Source: Cirrosporium novae-zelandiae
Lineage: Eukaryota
Reading direction: 5' to 3'
Assembly (NCBI GenBank): GCA_026023565.1
Contig: JAPETS010000050.1
Coordinates: 124,001 to 174,843, forward strand
Length of the DNA: 50,843 bases
A program made the translations under genes and the position numbers. Below the pieces are notes generated by a model. The model was not told the DNA's origin. It saw nothing but the letters and a program-made list of their open reading frames with translations, and ran no database searches. Each line of letters opens with the position of its first letter. Within the stretch, counting starts at the first letter, position 1. Shown in pieces: positions 3,032 to 36,800 of this stretch.

Positions 3032-4583
3032 AGCAATTTTCAGCACCAATTTCCATTCAGATTTTGAACGAGGCTGTAGTTATTCAATAAAGGGAAAGGG
3101 GTAACGATATACTGTACACAGTGGACAGCCATTGAGGCACCTAGAGACATCAGAATGAACCCGTCAGGGTTGCTAAGAGATTTGCCATTCTATCGGCGTC
3201 TATCGATCGATTGCTGCGGGTACAGAAGGATTGAGGCTATAAGATCATAATCGGAGGCGAAATGAAGGTGGTTTATATCATCCTTTGTCCTCTGGATAGC
3301 AATGTAATACAAGCTTACCGATATGCTTCAGAACGTGGTTTCATTTATCCTCGTCGTGCCCTGACTTATGATGATCTTAATATGTACTGGGTCAGGGACT
3401 CAGGTAAGGGTGGCACTATGACACGGTAGGGTTATAGTGAGTGGGGTCTTGCTCCTTAGATCCCAATACTCGATCGTCTCTGACGAATACAGGTTAAAGA
3501 GGTTTTCTACCTCGGCCAATGTGCCATCACAAAAAGAATAATTACCGGTAATTCCAATTTCCTAGTAGATGTCCGATCTACACAGTGAAGGAATGGGTCA
3601 GGCCAAACAGACCGACCGGGTTTTGACGGCCTATTGTCTGGATTATTTTTGTTGTCAAGGTTTGTTAGGAGCTTGGGGGCATGAAGAATATCGGAGCTCG
3701 GGATTTTCAATTTTTGGGTTTCGCCTAGACCCAAAAAGGTATAATCCACTTGACCCGAATGCCCACCCGTTATCCCGTTGTATCCCGTTGTATCCCGTTG
3801 TACCCCTGAATTCCATCCTGGGGCCTCTATTAAGCACTGAGAGTTGGAGTCTAACTGGGAGTTGGTCTCTTTACCAAAAATCAGTTAACAATCACTCTTA
3901 GGCGCCAATTGTTGGGGGAACACAACTAAATTAAGTTAATCCCGTCCTCGGCCGAGCTTAACCCAAGAGTATGATGTCAATCGCAACGGGATCTCCTTGG
4001 GTCATTTTCAAGTCTCCCAAGTTTGGTATCCAATGAGAGAATATTTCTTCAGAACGCTCTCATAACGGTTATGAAAGCCCGCATTCAACCTAGAGAGAGC
4101 GCGAAAAGAGCAGGGATAGAGATCGTAGAAGCAGGTAGGCAGAGCATGAAGTCTGAACAATCAACAAGGCCATCCAAATCACTACATCACTTCCATGTAA
4201 CTGCTAGGCAGCTGTGAGATAGTCGATGGCGATTAATCCCAAACTCCAGCACTCACATAGCTAGGCAGCAGTATGCATCCCCCTCTTCCTCTCCGCATAT
4301 CGATGATCGAGAACTAAATCCGATCTATATCCGAGGTTTAAAAGCAAGAAAAAAAGTATACAGAAAATATTGTATGTGATTGGTTTATTGCGGGACATGT
4401 GTATCACAACATTGGTATGTCCGATCCGAGTGTCCGGGGTGATGGGATATAAAAATGAGGTGGGTGTAGCTGTCTAGAGATTCAAAAGCCAGTAAAGCAA
4501 TCTATTCCATGTACTCTAGCACAAAACCCCATCAATTGATAAAGATCTTTTCGAAAATCAACATTCCTAAGACGATTACCACC

Positions 4584-5318
4584 ATGTCAGTCCAAAACAT
4601 CTTCACGGGCTCCTACTACGAGAAAGACCCTCGCTGGTCCGCTGTGGATGGCTACACGATCTCCCACCTACATCCTCCTACCCGCCCCAATCATGCCCCT
4701 CTCGTGCATGCCCTCGAACACGCCCGCGATGAAGGTCTCCCAGATATCGCCACCCAACCTGTTATGGGCAAGTTCCTCGCACTCCAATGCCGTATTGGAC
4801 GTGTCAAACATGCGCTGGAGATAGGCACTTTGGGGGCTTATACCAGCATTTGGCTAGCCACGGAGAATCCTGAGATTAAGGTGACGAGCGTGGAGGTAGA
4901 TCCTAAGCATGCGAGAGTTGCGAGGGAGAATATCGAGGCTGCCGGAGTGGGAGATAGAGTTGAAGTTGTGGAGGGGTCAGGGCTGGATGTCCTACCTAGA
5001 CTTGCGAAAGAAATCAAGGAGGGGAAGAGAGAGAAGTTTGGGTTTGTGTATATCGATGCCGATAAGCAGAATAACTGGGCATATTTCGATATGGCAGTGG
5101 GAATGTGTGAGATTGGAGGTTCGATCTATGTAGATAACATGGTATTTATGGGGGCGGTGGTTGCAGAGGAGCATCAGGGGGATGAGAGGATCAAAGGGAT
5201 ACGAAAAGTTATTGAGAATGCAGGGAAGGATAAGAGGGTTAATGCTGTTATAATGCAGACGGTTTGCGAGAAGACTTATGATGGGGTCTTGATTGCTGTT
5301 GTCGTGAAGAATGAGTAG
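4584..5318 (+). CDS. SAM-dependent O-methyltransferase family 3 (CCoAOMT/MdmC-like)
   Basis: Intronless ORF with LEIGTLGAYTSIWLA (SAM motif I), FVYIDADKQN, YVDNM and terminal YDG motifs. The likely start is ACC-ATG at 4584. Confidence 0.9.
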   Translation: MSVQNIFTGSYYEKDPRWSAVDGYTISHLHPPTRPNHAPLVHALEHARDEGLPDIATQPVMGKFLALQCRIGRVKHALEIGTLGAYTSIWLATENPEIKVTSVEVDPKHARVARENIEAAGVGDRVEVVEGSGLDVLPRLAKEIKEGKREKFGFVYIDADKQNNWAYFDMAVGMCEIGGSIYVDNMVFMGAVVAEEHQGDERIKGIRKVIENAGKDKRVNAVIMQTVCEKTYDGVLIAVVVKNE

Positions 5319-5881
5319 ATAGGAACTGCTTGGACGCATTCAAAGATGGTTGATGGCTAAGGATAGCTAAGAATGGCAAGCAGAAGGACTCTTCATACAT
5401 CTATCCAATTGATTAATTTCCAACTTAAATTCCCTGTAAAGACCGTCCAAGGTCAACTATCTGAAGACAGCCACAGATCCGAGACCACTTTCCTAGTGCT
5501 ATAATAGACCCAAGTTAGCATAGGTCCGTTGAGCTATCAAAGGGTGACTGGGCTACTGAGTAATCCAGTATTGCATGTTATATTAAGCATGGTGCAGTGC
5601 GTAACTCAACAAGGTCTAAGAGAGCCAACCTACAGAGCCAACAACCATCCTGCCGCAAGAAATGATTTTGACTGCAAGGCTGCTTGCTTATGTCATATTT
5701 TTGGATCATTAGATTGTTCTCGCCGGCTGCTATAAGTTCAAATATATTCTCCTTCACCGAAATATACCCTAGTCTCATTAGGTTGCTAAGAGGAGGGCTC
5801 GCTGAAAATGTTAATGAGATTAGATAAGCGGCCGGCATTAGGGATAACGAAGATGGGACTACTGAGGGAAAGGAAAAGAAG

Positions 5882-6160
5882 AGGCCATACGGTTCGTTAA
5901 GTTATTATAAATTACCAAAGAGCCTCGAAGAGTATTGGTTTTTAATCTAATCAATACACCTCTCCCGAGGTTGAGATTTTTCGTATATATTAGTTCTAGA
6001 ACTACTATAGACTAGGTATTTATATAGTAGAATATTATAACGTAAACGATGACTAATTTAATAAGCCGTTCGCAGTTTTATAATATGATTGTTTATATTT
6101 AGGTTTGTATGGTTTAATCTTTGAGACAAATATATAGCTACCGGGAGAATCAACCAGGTA
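5882..6160 (-). pseudogene. Degenerate 5' fragment (~280 nt) of the 18S rRNA gene
   Basis: The reverse complement reads TACCTGGTTGATTCT...TTGTCTCAAAGATTAA...AAACTGCGAACGGCTTATTAAAT...TTCTAGAACTAATA...ATTAGATTAAAAACCAAT...CGTATGGCCT. This is colinear with the universal 18S 5' end but carries many C>T/G>A changes and is truncated. Confidence 0.93.
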
Positions 6161-6400
6161 GCTATCCTTATAAAAACCCTTACGAAGGAGGTCTGGAATA
6201 GCCACGAGAAAGGACACAGGCCTAGAAGAGGCTCAAAGCCCCCGAGAGCACCCACGTCAACGGCGGAGGGAACCGCCGCGGACCAAACGGCCTGTCGAGC
6301 AGCACCCCTACGCGCGCCATCCATTTGCCCCCACAGAGTTCCCCAGGGCTCGATCCGTCGCAGGGACACCTCGGGCACCCCCATCAGGGGTAACCCAAAT
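6161..6400 (-). other. Probable rDNA 5' external transcribed spacer remnant
   Basis: GC-rich stretch contiguous with, and immediately upstream of, the 18S start. The assignment rests on position only. Confidence 0.55.
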
Positions 6401-6718
6401 CCTTAATCATATTATAGTAGAGCGGGTTCACATGCTCAGTAGAAGGTAGAAGGGGGGCGCTGAACGCATGGGGTAAAAGGATTCTTAATTGAATAAACAC
6501 AAAGTCTAGTAAGGGAAATTATTTATTGAATAATTCTAAAGGAAATTTCATTGCATTCTCTAGAAAAGTTATGAGGGAGAGAAGAAAGCTGTTTTATACC
6601 AATACGGAACAAAGATACCCCCGGGTCACCGATGAAGTAGACCCTCGCTGAGAGCCTAGTCTATGTCGCTGCCTAGTTGAACAGGCAAGTAGGGTTGTCG
6701 CCCTACTCGATCACAATA

Positions 6719-7800
6719 TCAAAAACATATGCAGGGCTCGCAGAAACATTTCGCTGGTCTTTCTTCCTTGCGGTTGAAACATAGCCGTAGCCATCCGTCC
6801 GGGTGTAGAAAGACACAGGTCACGCGGTCGTTGGAGGGCCCGTGGCCAGAACAGGAGGACAAATCTCCGTTACCGTAGACGCTATACGATCTGTTCTCTA
6901 TCACTGTGGCGAAACGACCGTGTTGAATCCCGTTAATGCAGCCCAACTCCCCGGCCTCGTTTCTGAAGGTGCGCCCATTATTGCAGGCGTGGGAAAAAGG
7001 GGATTGGTCAGCCCGCCCGGTTCCCTCTAGCTGCCCTACCAGTTGCTGCCAGTTTGATTCGGTCGGCGTGCTGATGAAGCATAGTAATCTCACAATCCTG
7101 ATACCTACTAGTTTTTTCACCGTTTTCCCGTCTGGGCCGGCCTAAATCTGCATGATGTCATTGCTCGCCATCCAACATGATCCCGGGGGATCCTTTCACC
7201 CATTGCAGCGGCCACCACCTGCCCCAGGTTGTAGCACTTGTTGTACCAACAAGCCGAGCTTTTGTAGCGTTCGGGGGGATGGAGAGGGGCGCGCACAGTG
7301 TTTGCTTGGATTTCACCAAAGATGGGGGTGTGTAGGGTAGCATCGTACAGCTTTTGGAAACAGGCGAATGTTGTCTGGAAAACATAATTCGCGGTCCCGA
7401 TGAGGTCCTCGTGGTCTGGTATATCGGCAGGAAGGAATGGGTAGATGGGTAGGGGCCGCTGAGTATGTGGAATCCGTAAAGCTTGTATCGCTGGTGTGGC
7501 TGGTTGGTTAGGCATTTTTGGCATTACTGGCATCGTTGGTATTGTTGGTATCGCTGGAGGAGTGAACATAGCGGGTGAAGCTGGCGAGGCTGGAAGGCGC
7601 GAGTGTTTCTGTAGGTAAAAGGATCAGCAACCCCCTAGAATCATTGTATCGGCTGTAGCGGGCAAAACTTACCTGCAATTCTCCAAAGTAGGATTCCCGC
7701 CGCTTTTGTTGCTGCTACTAGCTGCGAGGCTTGGGACAGGACGGAGCGGAGAGCTCTAGCTTTGGTAATTGTAATGTCCATGAGCTAGGTGATCGTTTTC
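6719..7800 (-). pseudogene. RIP-damaged gene with C-terminal His-Me finger / His-Cys-box-like (homing-endonuclease zinc-loop) domain
   Basis: Canonical intron 7672-7609 (GTAAGT..GCTGAT..TACAG) joins QKRRESYFGELQ|KHSRLPASP in frame. The C-terminal frame has SCW...FSHACNN...GCINGIQH...ENRS(Y)SV(Y)GNG..CSGHG..CVF..CFCEPC. Stops lie at 7715-7720 (TAG TAG inside a CAG/CAA run), 7196-7198 and 7142-7144, and there is one frameshift. The 5' end is uncertain. Confidence 0.55.
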
Positions 7801-8473
7801 ATCGTTGATGGCGTCGGTACTTCACCCTCGACGAGGCAGTAGTGCAATTTGACGTGTAATAAAAATAACTTCAGTTTGTATTTGGAGCGTCGATATCCTG
7901 TAAAGCTAGTCTCTTCCCTATTGGCTTGTAGAAAGGCTGAAGGCTGTAGGAAAGTCTAGGAAAAATGAATAGACCCGAGCCCAATGAAAGAAAAACAAAG
8001 AGAGAGACCCGATCCCAAGGGAATGAGATTGAATAGAAGCATGATGAGAAAAAAGAAACAACAAGTAGACAAAGCCAGAGAATATAAGTACTTAGGAACA
8101 ATAGGAACAATGAAGGCTCCTGCCAGAATTGGATACTCCAATGAGCCAACTCGTTGAATGTAGTAGTAATTAGTACGCAATTTGGTTTATTCTGGGGGTG
8201 CTTTCCTCGAAGCTCTTGTTTCTGATCCTGTCGTTTTGATGCTATTGTTTTGTTCTTATTGTGCTGGAGCTCTTACTTCAAGTGTCGCTTATTCTATTTC
8301 ATTATGGCCTGAGGTTCTTTCGTTTTGTATTATGGCTCGTGGTGGCCTAAGGCTCTCCAATCAATCAATCATTATTGTAGTAGGGATGACGTCATTTACA
8401 ACCGAGTGCATCACATCCCCCTCCCCAACACACGACGTCTTACTATGCCACACAATTCACCTTGAGATCAGCT

Positions 8474-10630
8474 ATGATGAAAGAATCTCATGTCTGGAGA
8501 AGTAATCAATTATGCTCAACATGCCAAAATGTAAATTTCAAATCCCTTATCCATCCAGACGAACCGTTCGGCAAGACTCAAAGAACAGAGTGGAAGGTGG
8601 CAGATATCAAAAGCTCAGTCTTGTGTCCCTTTTGCAGGCTTTTGGTTCAATTATTTCGACAGGAACAACGGCCATCTCTAGATATGATAGAGTCAGGAAC
8701 TTGCTTCATGTATCCCGAATATTTTGGCTCGTATAGATACGCTCATAATCCGAGTGTTGAGTACCCTACTTACCATCTTTCGGTGGGTTTGTGGTCGGCC
8801 GATGGCGGAGAGAGTAATCCGCCGCTTCATCAGATATATGGTCTAGCCTATGATGATGATGATGATAATTATGATACCAAAAGCCCCTCTTTATTTCAAG
8901 GGAGATTGATGGGCCGGCAAATAGATATACAAATGCTCAAAACCTGGCTCTCAATTTGTACCAAAGAGCACTGTGCTACATGCCAACCTGATGTCGTACC
9001 TCGTGAAGTTGGATTAGCACTGAAAGTCATCGACGTGACCCGGTGCTGCATCATATTTGCGCCATCTAACTGTAGGTATCTAGCATTAAGCTATGTATGG
9101 AGGGATATTTCCCAGCTGGAACTAACAGAAGATACGCAGCATCGATTGATGGAAGATAATGGGCTATCGACTACTGAACAGCAGTCTCGACGAGTTCCTA
9201 AATCAATCTGGGATGCGATCGAGCTAACGCGACAACTTGGAGAGAGATATCTTTGGGTCGACGCCTTGTGCATAAAGCAGGACGATGAAGCGGATAAGCG
9301 CCTTCTGATCAACAATATGGACGTTATATATTCTAGTGCTATATTTACAATTGTGGCTGCTGCCGGCAAAGATGCAGACGCCGGTCTTCCCGGTTTGCAT
9401 CTAGACTCCTCCCGGCCTGTCCTGGATGCGATCGAAAACATTCAAGGTCTAAATCTTGGAATCGCACGCCGTCCATTTGTCGATTCCATCACCGAGTCAA
9501 CATGGGAAGAACGAGGCTGGACTTTTCAAGAAAAAATTCTTTCGAAACGATTGATGATATTCACAGACGAACAAGTCTTCTTCCACTGCAACGAAGCGAC
9601 ATGGTTTGAAGACACTATTCTTGAAAAACACGATCCGGACATACAGATCCAAACACCATGGTACGGCCATCGTGAATGGGTTAAGCCCAGATCCAACACC
9701 TCGAAATTCGACAAATACGGTGGTCTTCTGGATGGCTACTTGCACCGGGATCTCACCTACGAGTCCGACATCTTAAACGCTTTCCAAGGAATCCTAAACG
9801 CTCTCACCCCTCTCTTCGAAGGAGGTTTCTTCTGGGGCCTGCCCACTTGCCTATTCGACGCTGCGCTGCTCTGGCGAACCAGCCACAGCCTGAAGTCAAG
9901 ACGTCCCAACTTCCCCAGCTGGTCCTGGCTAGGTTGGAAGCAGTATTCTATAGGCTATTCAGAGCTCCTACACAAAAGTACCGCATCAGAGATTGACTGG
10001 TTTCAAGCATCATCATCCTGTGGCGATGGTGATGGTATAGACCAAATCATCCGTATTCCTAATTCCGAGAGCCTAAGATACGAGACCCGGAGACAGGGAT
10101 GCTCTAATAGCAACACATCGCCGGGGGAGGAAGAACTTTGCACCCAATGGAAGAAACGACATGATAGCAAAAAAATCTCCACAGCAGAAAATTACATCCA
10201 TACAACCATCCACCCACCTCCTTCCCACCTCCTATTCTTCTGGACCAGCAGCGCCATTCTCCCCGTAGACCACCTCAACCCCAAACCCACCAATAGCCCT
10301 AACTCTACCCCCCACAACCACACCTACTCAATTCTAGCCCCCCACCCCACCACCTCCACCAATATTGCAAAAATAACCCTCGACCCAAACTGGCGAGAAA
10401 CCCAACCCGACACTCTCGAATTTATCGTCATATCCCGAGATATCCGTCCAAACTACTTACAACGGAAAGAAAATCCTCCTCAGCAACGACAACAAAGGCT
10501 GAATATCATGCTCATCAAATACCAAACTGAGGGAATCGCATCCCGGGTCCAACTTCCCCAGGACTCGGTTTTAGAAGCTCAATGGAACGAGTTGCCTAAT
10601 CTGAAGTGGAAGTTTGTTGTTTTGGGGTGA
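8474..10630 (+). CDS. Heterokaryon incompatibility (HET domain, TOL-like) protein
   Basis: Intronless ~718 aa ORF with N-terminal CxxC pairs and HET motifs YLALSYVW, DAIELTRQLGERYLWVDALCIKQDD, MDVIYSSA, WEERGWTFQEKILSKR, DILNAFQG and FPSWSWLGW. Confidence 0.93.
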   Translation: MMKESHVWRSNQLCSTCQNVNFKSLIHPDEPFGKTQRTEWKVADIKSSVLCPFCRLLVQLFRQEQRPSLDMIESGTCFMYPEYFGSYRYAHNPSVEYPTYHLSVGLWSADGGESNPPLHQIYGLAYDDDDDNYDTKSPSLFQGRLMGRQIDIQMLKTWLSICTKEHCATCQPDVVPREVGLALKVIDVTRCCIIFAPSNCRYLALSYVWRDISQLELTEDTQHRLMEDNGLSTTEQQSRRVPKSIWDAIELTRQLGERYLWVDALCIKQDDEADKRLLINNMDVIYSSAIFTIVAAAGKDADAGLPGLHLDSSRPVLDAIENIQGLNLGIARRPFVDSITESTWEERGWTFQEKILSKRLMIFTDEQVFFHCNEATWFEDTILEKHDPDIQIQTPWYGHREWVKPRSNTSKFDKYGGLLDGYLHRDLTYESDILNAFQGILNALTPLFEGGFFWGLPTCLFDAALLWRTSHSLKSRRPNFPSWSWLGWKQYSIGYSELLHKSTASEIDWFQASSSCGDGDGIDQIIRIPNSESLRYETRRQGCSNSNTSPGEEELCTQWKKRHDSKKISTAENYIHTTIHPPPSHLLFFWTSSAILPVDHLNPKPTNSPNSTPHNHTYSILAPHPTTSTNIAKITLDPNWRETQPDTLEFIVISRDIRPNYLQRKENPPQQRQQRLNIMLIKYQTEGIASRVQLPQDSVLEAQWNELPNLKWKFVVLG

Positions 10631-13333: not shown

Positions 13334-13471
13334 CTTCTTCTTCTTCTTCTTCTTCTTCTTCTTCTTCTTCTTCTTCTTTTTCTTGGGTTATAAGTTCTAA
13401 ATTGATTGGATTGGATTGGATTATGAGATGGTCGGTTCTAATTATCTAATTATCTAATTGATAAATAAACT

Positions 13472-13503
<32 letters not shown>

Positions 13504-13508
13504 AAGAA
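13334..13508. repeat. (CTT)n (13334-13378) and (GAA)n (13474-13508) microsatellites in inverted orientation
   Basis: Seen directly. Confidence 0.95.
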
Positions 13509-13713
13509 ATTTTCTAGTTCTATTTACTGTATTTCGATAAACTTAGATCCCCATTCCTTAGATTAGAACAAATAAAAAAGCTCATAATATATCCATCTCC
13601 TTTGTTTCATCGTCAGATTTTCATTCTTCCTTTTTCCTTTTTCTTTTCCTTTTATATACTCCCCATCCACCACCTTTTTCTATAACATATTATAATCTAT
13701 GTTTCAATCCAAC

Positions 13714-36486: not shown

Positions 36487-36760
36487 GATGATATGCCAAA
36501 GAAGAAGAAAAAAGAAAAAACAAGTTCTTATTTAGCTTTTTTTTCTTTTTTCTTTTTTTTTCCTCATTTCTTTTAAATCAAATTTATTTATCTAAGGTAG
36601 GTAGGATAATGGATTACCCTTGGGTTTTTCTATTTTCTATTTTCTATTTTCTTTTTTTTTTTTCCCCCACTACTCCCACATTTTTCTATAACCTCATTAT
36701 CCATGCATACATACATACATACATAACATCACCATTGATTTTACAAGGGTGTCTTGAGGT

Positions 36761-36800
36761 GTATGTATGTATGTATGTATGTATGTATGTATGTATGTAT
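36761..36800. repeat. (TATG)n microsatellite
   Basis: About 10 units seen directly. Confidence 0.95.

Follow-up and report, generated by a model that had tools for sequence, protein, structure and literature searches.

Fungal genes for homing endonucleases (HEGs) of the His-Cys box class are known from introns in the ribosomal DNA (rDNA) of the small subunit (SSU), degenerate copies included, as described in sections of PMC3699495; these also report I-BdoI, a 259-aa enzyme encoded in the S1199 group IE intron of Botryosphaeria, and its degenerate descendant Bdo.S1199-B. Both sense and antisense arrangements have been described for such genes (parts of PMC9548176 and PMC3699495), and small 5' spliceosomal introns appear in passages of PMC9548176 as a described feature of rDNA His-Cys HEGs. 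Here we report a locus in the ascomycete Cirrosporium novae-zelandiae (Xylobotryomycetes) in which a pseudogene of a nuclease family apparently of this class lies close to a mutated fragment of the 5' external transcribed spacer (ETS) and 18S rRNA gene. The locus is contained in a 50,843-nt stretch of assembly GCA_026023565.1 (contig JAPETS010000050.1, positions 124,001 to 174,843), the whole of which is referred to below as the window and numbered from its first nucleotide. We interpret the pair as a decayed ectopic HEG and an rDNA orphon which probably escaped together from rDNA. A preliminary description, made from the sequence alone, had proposed the locus as a candidate for an undescribed system; since rDNA-intron HEGs of the His-Cys box type, some of them degenerate, have already been published for fungi (parts of PMC3699495 and PMC9548176), it is not a new system. 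What is new here is an ectopic chromosomal HEG copy coupled to an rDNA orphon, and a branch of the family missed by Pfam.

The strongest support for assigning the pseudogene to this class comes from the 18S context of its relatives. Scanning metagenome contigs with a nine-row alignment of close members returned 35 pattern matches and three relatives, one of which (L003) was excluded as a match of only 30 residues, leaving two informative loci. In the larger (L002, 2083 nt), an 18S gene scoring 258 bits over model positions 5-450 is split by a 1643-nt insertion at 329-1971, between ...GGATAGTG and GCCTACC..., that carries an undamaged 366-aa family member on the rRNA sense strand (open reading frame (ORF) at 709-1809). 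The insertion opens with GTACGT and closes with TGCTAAC and 16 nt ending in CAG, all canonical spliceosomal signals, and no placement of its junction yields both the U and the terminal G needed by a group I intron; it therefore looks like a spliceosomal-type intron with a homing endonuclease gene. Short spliceosomal introns in rDNA are known (parts of PMC8527467 and PMC11889510), and no description of one carrying a nuclease gene was found in the open-access literature.

The second informative locus (L001, 1885 nt) holds a 286-codon member at 478-1338, in which no ATG was found and just upstream of which, at 468, lies GTAAGT. About 500 nt past its stop codon the opposite strand matches the 18S primer E960F exactly (segment 1839-1885), and the junction there, between ...CACCAGGT and TAACGGG... 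with GCCTGG downstream, looks like group I P1 pairing. We place this junction near what we take to be the S1199 site. Group I intron models of Rfam gave no match in either locus at E<=10. Both informative relatives reside in insertions in 18S rDNA, L002 in sense and L001 in antisense. The window copy is 40% and 39% identical to the two ORFs over ~150 residues, and in a 96-row FastTree phylogeny, shown without support values, the two relatives fall in the two major clades, with the window copy branching near the base of that of L002. Comparison of the non-coding flanks of L001 and L002 with the window by blastn gave short, chance-level matches only.

Set beside I-BdoI and Bdo.S1199-B, as far as the published sections describe them, the window copy has in common with them a host among the ascomycetes, a comparable size, a pair of Cys/His zinc motifs and degeneration following fixation, and differs in being chromosomal, with ETS-18S sequence downstream instead of intron and exon flanks. 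The L001 junction looks like the same 18S region as that of I-BdoI.

The C-terminal ORF of the pseudogene belongs to an unnamed fungal family, with 87 matches at E<=1e-3 and 30 at E<=1e-10 among 1.84e9 representative sequences, so that the C-terminal Cys/His/Asn pattern picked out in the preliminary description corresponds to the core conserved across a genuine family. Long bacterial-type FG-GAP/TIG proteins (P0022, P0063, P0075 and P0088) were dropped from the 87 as spurious, and the three-domain protein P0002 was excluded from alignments. The remaining homologues are ~100-580 aa long, match at the C-terminal end where they are full-length, and have Lipomyces, Annulohypoxylon, Mycoblastus and Venturia as named sources, many others being metagenomic. 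A profile search gave at least five matches (8000 candidates), a search for longer homologues gave none, and the N-terminal piece returned nothing beyond the window's own public protein. Also observed among the Lipomyces members were proteins in which the domain recurs in tandem two or three times (P0002, 552 aa; P0008, 346 aa; P0097, 670 aa) on contigs of 80-217 kb, the family being multi-copy there; either tandem genes were fused in annotation or the proteins are genuinely multi-domain.

The family pattern SHxC..CxNxxxH..N..C..CPGH..C is present in the pseudogene, whose core reads PFSH(51)xC(53)...C(68)xN(70)xxxH(74)...N(83)...[C89>Y]...C(97)S(98)GH(100)...C109...C121...C132...C139. Near-invariant in the family are H51, C53, C68, N70, H74, N83, C89, C97, H100, C109 and C121, the first ten of which are 95-100% conserved, with 98% for the putative catalytic His (H51) and 96% for the putative metal-binding Asn (N83) in 83-84 relatives. 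Two Cys/His clusters, each 95-100% conserved (the Cys of CWM, C53, C68 and H74; then C89, C97, H100 and C109), would correspond to the two zinc-binding clusters that characterize the His-Cys box class. The residues follow one another as in a His-Cys box enzyme: a His at the end of a strand, Cys..Cys..His, a helix-borne Asn, and Cys..Cys..His..Cys. With I-PpoI in particular the family shares the order and near-identical spacing of catalytic His, Cys/His zinc ligands and metal-binding Asn, on a residue-by-residue correspondence to I-PpoI numbering that we presume to be right. I-PpoI is also the best structural lead, and relatives of the family live in rDNA. It differs in having 163 residues, as against ~220 conserved residues in the family, and in a shorter loop between the first two Cys; the window copy further departs from the I-PpoI-type class in being broken, outside any intron and outside rDNA.

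Profile and fold comparisons point the same way. PF05551 (zf-His_Me_endon) was the sole Pfam family matched by more than one member (4/83, all sub-threshold); its gathering score was reached by none of the 83 aligned members nor by the L001 or L002 ORFs, no family member reached any other Pfam cut-off, and the window's three gene pieces gave nothing in Pfam at E<=1. In an AlphaFold 2 (AF2) model of P0004, an undamaged member (predicted local distance difference test score, pLDDT, 83), the top three structural matches among 48,161 chains were the NFIC DNA-binding domain (Z 5.5, 125 aligned residues), Smad4 MH1 (Z 5.0) and I-PpoI (Z 4.8, 114 aligned residues), with the fourth-best chain at Z 3.4; by Foldseek the first match was I-PpoI, at a non-significant E of 1.1. 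The AF2 model of the window's own 140-aa piece (pLDDT 88.5) found only five chains at Z>=2, of which I-PpoI, aligned over residues 75-140, was best (Z 3.3) and the other four include I-HmuI, endonuclease I and McrA. In the modelled secondary structure a strand bearing PFSH is followed by a second strand and then by the Asn-bearing helix. Searching the C-terminal piece with phmmer against PDB sequences returned only antibody chains (E 0.29-1), which are noise, and the best protein atlas score, 0.78, gave no lead.

NFI shares the MH1 fold, and when the 220-residue domain is compared as a whole these two rank first (Z 5.5 and 5.0). MH1 itself is regarded as a homing endonuclease that has degenerated, and I-PpoI is placed in His-Me finger group 12, PF05551 (parts of PMC5714182). 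According to the same source MH1 has lost the catalytic His, whereas our family keeps both His (98%) and Asn (96%) and is therefore more likely a nuclease than a pure DNA binder. The preliminary description had called the gene a His-Cys/His-Me nuclease, to be checked against PF05551 and I-PpoI. Motif, fold and PF05551 scores, each weak and the last sub-threshold, agree in supporting that assignment, and the failure to reach the PF05551 cut-off points to a distant branch of the His-Cys box class, not to a place outside it.

Coordinates of the features are collected in Table 1. That the minus-strand gene ends at 6719 was correctly recognized from the outset. The second intron then proposed for it (~7119-7070) turned out to be coding: it reads KLVGIRIVRLLCFISTPTESNW and fits the family's conserved VRLLAFLxxPTxxNW. 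By tblastn with 11 family proteins, homology runs in frame -3 from ~7500 to ~7186-7198 and continues in frame -2 over ~7186-6722, the two frames being joined by a -1 frameshift. Removing the predicted 5' intron yields the deposited protein P0001 (7117-7781), which reads on in frame -3, the wrong frame from ~7186, to a stop at 7117; because of the frameshift this 193-aa model is an artefact that misses the whole nuclease core.

Beyond the frameshift and the in-frame stop, the pseudogene has lost C89, a likely zinc ligand, through TGC>TAC, a TpG>TpA change of the type made by repeat-induced point mutation (RIP). Other substitutions at conserved columns are P98S (P in 93%) and P120L (P in 75%), and two of these three are CpA>TpA-type changes. 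The codons for H51 and N83 are undamaged. Of the two reversions put forward earlier as restoring ligands, TAC>TGC is borne out by the relatives, and TAT>CAT is not, since that column holds R29/H22/Q17/M7/Y2 of 84.

Depth and contig comparisons were made with the contigs of the one sequencing run that contains the stretch, a run which may be the assembly's own source and in which single-copy depth is about 350. They reveal a second copy of the gene in the same genome, on a single-copy 3179-nt contig ~83% alike over 6995-7251. This paralogue, whose sequence we rebuilt from the listed differences (two substitutions lie outside that list), has one extra base at 7189 and three at the TAG site, so that its frame, free of the TAG, stays open as ..MQISKA..; a further extra base near 7199 makes it probable that this copy is broken too. 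The end of another single-copy contig (1913 nt, depth 364) resembles the family's 3' flank, which begins 17 nt after the stop codon, with 11 mismatched letters and 5 gap positions.

Downstream on the same strand, the canonical 5' end of 18S lies at 6160, 558 bp past the TGA, in agreement with the ~560 bp first estimated. Rfam SSU_rRNA_eukarya matches 6118-5721 (39.2 bits, E 2.7e-8, model 43-434; gathering score 50), the sole rRNA match in the window, where no Rfam family reached its gathering score. Contigs at ~20-50x single-copy depth cover 5905-6409, and a 130-nt contig at depth 8895 against ~350 matches 6287-6390 with seven differences before diverging from the window. From the 18S start to a box at 6316-6349 there are 149 nt in the window and 147 nt in another organism's contigs; this spacing and the high-depth match identify 6161-~6400 as genuine 5'ETS, ~93% like the native array. 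The fragment is colinear with genuine rDNA and is matched by the same genome's high-copy array. Its extent needed revision from that first given: 18S and ETS are both real, but 18S-like sequence extends to ~5721, and ETS makes up ~240 of the 560 bp, rDNA homology stopping ~320 bp short of the gene. The scrambled tail (5721-5882) has no match to native rDNA contigs at >=80%. Over the spacer, depth is near single copy (~350-440, the 6612-6712 bin being raised where the run's contigs overlap the 1913-nt contig), and Rfam gave no match there at E<=1. Two other organisms sampled in the same study have, in contigs of very high depth, a nearly identical copy of the ~30-nt box at 6316-6349, which is presumably a conserved element for pre-rRNA processing or U3 binding.

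Table 1. Positions of the pseudogene, the rDNA fragment and associated features in the window.
Feature	Position	Strand	Remarks
His-Cys-box-like (I-PpoI-type) nuclease family pseudogene	7781-6719	-	ATG at 7781, TGA at 6721-6719
Exon 1 (MDITITKARALRSV...WRIA)	7673..7781	-	100% identity with public model P0001, 193 aa
Predicted spliceosomal intron, 83 nt (GTAAGT...CAG)	7590..7672	-	near 5' end of gene
C5 run, -1 frameshift	7189-7185	-	...AAAMGERIP to PPGSCWM...
In-frame TAG stop (..DIMQI-stop-AGPDGK..)	7144-7142	-	frame -2
Putative His-Cys box / His-Me finger core	6725..7000	-	93-100% column conservation in 80-84 relatives
TAC (Tyr) for Cys, C89Y	6877-6875	-	Cys in 81/84 relatives (96%)
Gene 3' flank	6593-6702	-	~90% alike at end of another single-copy contig
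Spacer without detectable rDNA homology	6401..6718	-	AT-rich at ~6400-6640
3' end of 5'ETS, ~240 bp	6161..6400	-	high-depth contig match
18S rRNA gene positions 1-268	5883..6160	-	heavily C>T / G>A mutated
Scrambled 18S continuation	5721..5882	-	to ~model position 434; 45-nt insertion and deletions (Rfam, pairwise alignment)
Heterokaryon incompatibility (HET) domain gene	8390-10630	opposite to pseudogene	directly upstream of pseudogene; 746-codon open frame, E 3e-33

The mutational profiles of the two parts differ. Taking the L002 18S exon, that is, the sequence of another fungus, as reference, 209/266 positions of the 18S piece (6156-5883) are identical (78.6%), and the 57 differences comprise 34 in the RIP direction (C>T/G>A), 12 reverse transitions and 11 transversions. 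Mutated sites make up 16/33 CpA/TpG sites against 18/68 other C/G sites (Fisher p 0.043). With a TpA/ApT index of 1.29, a (CpA+TpG)/(ApC+GpT) index of 0.52 and 31% GC, the 18S part looks RIP-mutated, as may be explained by its being a duplicate of the rDNA array. The C-terminal half of the gene has the corresponding values 0.70 and 1.19, which do not indicate RIP and resemble those of neighbouring genes (0.63 and 1.31 for the HET gene). The preliminary description had held both parts to be similarly damaged and on that ground possibly to have moved as one unit; since the damage is unequal the argument fails, and movement as a single unit is not shown. In its GC-poor 18S piece, C>T/G>A excess, high TpA/ApT and position outside the array, the fragment resembles the RIP-mutated rDNA orphons of filamentous ascomycetes; it differs from them in comprising only ~0.7 kb, an ETS start and a scrambled 18S tail, and in being coupled to a pseudogene of an rDNA-type nuclease.

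Neither the pseudogene nor the rDNA fragment is functional today, and the feature is a relic. On the interpretation we favour, a working element's enzyme would have cleaved, at the insertion site, an rDNA copy lacking the insertion, and repair would then have copied the insertion plus the nuclease gene into the cut copy. Both pieces would be rDNA-derived debris which arrived here in one event or in linked events, possibly as broken rDNA/HEG DNA captured during double-strand-break repair, and the gene would have decayed afterwards through the frameshift, stop codon and lost Cys. The identity of each part, the lesions, the residence of two relatives in rDNA and the lack of a close gene copy in the native array are observed; the common origin and the integration mechanism, and likewise capture at a chromosomal break, are what we infer from them. 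Several observations weigh against this interpretation. No more than two relatives are known to reside in rDNA, other members coming from large contigs (80-217 kb in Lipomyces, 2.57 Mb in Venturia and 83 kb for a JGI contig), and the best PF05551 score is 19.5 bits (E 0.0012; gathering score 27), every fold score is under the tool's safe level (Z<8) and the family profile found no PDB sequence at E<=10. The order gene, spacer, ETS, 18S is unlike the remains of an intron-borne HEG, and the 18S fragment crosses the L002 insertion site without a large insertion. Neither the 320-bp spacer nor the gene with its 5' flank has high-depth rDNA cover, and ETS homology ends at ~6390-6400, near where the native rDNA contig diverges with a loose end. 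The genome has a second copy of the gene; the 18S piece is RIP-like and the gene is not, so the parts may differ in age or history; and the contigs of the run are interrupted at 6678-6702, within a repeat, so that the link between gene and rDNA rests on the assembly.

Chance juxtaposition, with a decayed nuclease gene and an rDNA fragment inserted separately into the same gene-poor gap, accommodates the unlike mutational profiles, the 320 bp of unrelated sequence between the parts and the dispersed repeat adjoining them, as well as the lack of terminal direct or inverted repeats framing 5300-8500 and of target-site duplications around the pair. We nevertheless consider it unlikely: the only rRNA match in 50.8 kb falls within 320 bp, on the same strand, of a pseudogene whose family dwells in 18S, and because two of two informative relatives sit in 18S insertions the adjacency is probably not fortuitous. 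A common rDNA origin of gene and fragment is on balance the more likely explanation. An alternative raised at the outset, and a rather improbable one, is that the gene once stood on its own in the rDNA spacer, immediately upstream of the ETS, and that the locus is an orphon copy of that arrangement. The two parts are indeed close and co-oriented, and the ETS part retains ~93% likeness to the native array, but high-depth cover ends at 6409 and is found nowhere on the gene or its 5' flank, the native contig has its loose end at the divergence near 6390, and the next 26 nt of native sequence were not found again in the window beyond the level of shuffled controls, although this is a weak test; the native array is without a close copy of the gene. 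No group I model matched in the window (Rfam, E<=1), where the preliminary description had seen no group I intron context.

A misjoin of nuclease-gene and rDNA-bearing loci through the repeat at 6593-6702, in what is a metagenome-assembled genome contig, would explain why the run's contigs end and start at 6678-6702 and why a second contig shares 6593-6702 at ~90%, and the only run containing the stretch may be the assembly's own source. Yet the 13,212-nt contig bearing the rDNA fragment itself includes 6593-6702, the gene family's 3' flank, so that the end of the gene, in one copy or another, is joined to the rDNA piece, and the fragment is mutated rather than native array sequence; such an artefact seems very improbable. 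One contig was also seen with a joint 6434>6670, only 26 letters lying on one side. It is harder still to believe that the gene is alive, its frameshift being a homopolymer sequencing error and its TAG read through or spliced out: the frameshift does fall in a C5 run and the codons of the catalytic residues are intact, but the frameshift, TAG, C89Y, P98S and P120L are independent lesions, the substitutions in columns 75-96% conserved, and the 50-nt stretch proposed as an intron is conserved coding sequence. To return to a joint escape from rDNA, a more specific version, which we regard as doubtful, is that the family includes His-Cys box genes not tied to group I introns, such as that of L002 with its spliceosomal insertion ends and those on large contigs without the look of rDNA, and that the window preserves the fossil of one leaving rDNA. 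If this were true, a departing nuclease gene would have taken ETS-18S sequence along, an instance of nuclease-driven movement of rDNA, and perhaps of spliceosomal-type introns too.

The family would represent a sizeable fungal branch of the His-Cys box class missed by Pfam. Its decayed copy with an rDNA fragment outside the array bears on how such genes, and rDNA, escape and on how they die; a nuclease gene within a spliceosomal-type rDNA intron, to which L002 provides a lead, is relevant to the spread of spliceosomal introns in rDNA.

The site itself is on an ordinary chromosome, outside the rDNA array. Pseudogene and rDNA fragment are flanked by an O-methyltransferase gene (4470-5315) and the HET-domain gene, with MFS, eIF1A and ALG3 genes in the wider neighbourhood. 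The gap between the flanking genes is gene-poor and also contains a short dispersed repeat (5528-5611), an 84-bp element just beyond the decayed 18S tail which is found on ~13 other contigs of the same run at a depth of ~5,700 against 350, and could be a miniature inverted-repeat transposable element, a short interspersed nuclear element or a piece of a solo long terminal repeat. Elsewhere in the window, at 13341-13509 and 36703-36792, plant and animal microRNA precursor models match both strands (E 4e-6 to 1e-2), well under gathering score; these are long, nearly perfect hairpins and are probably inverted-repeat elements rather than microRNAs.

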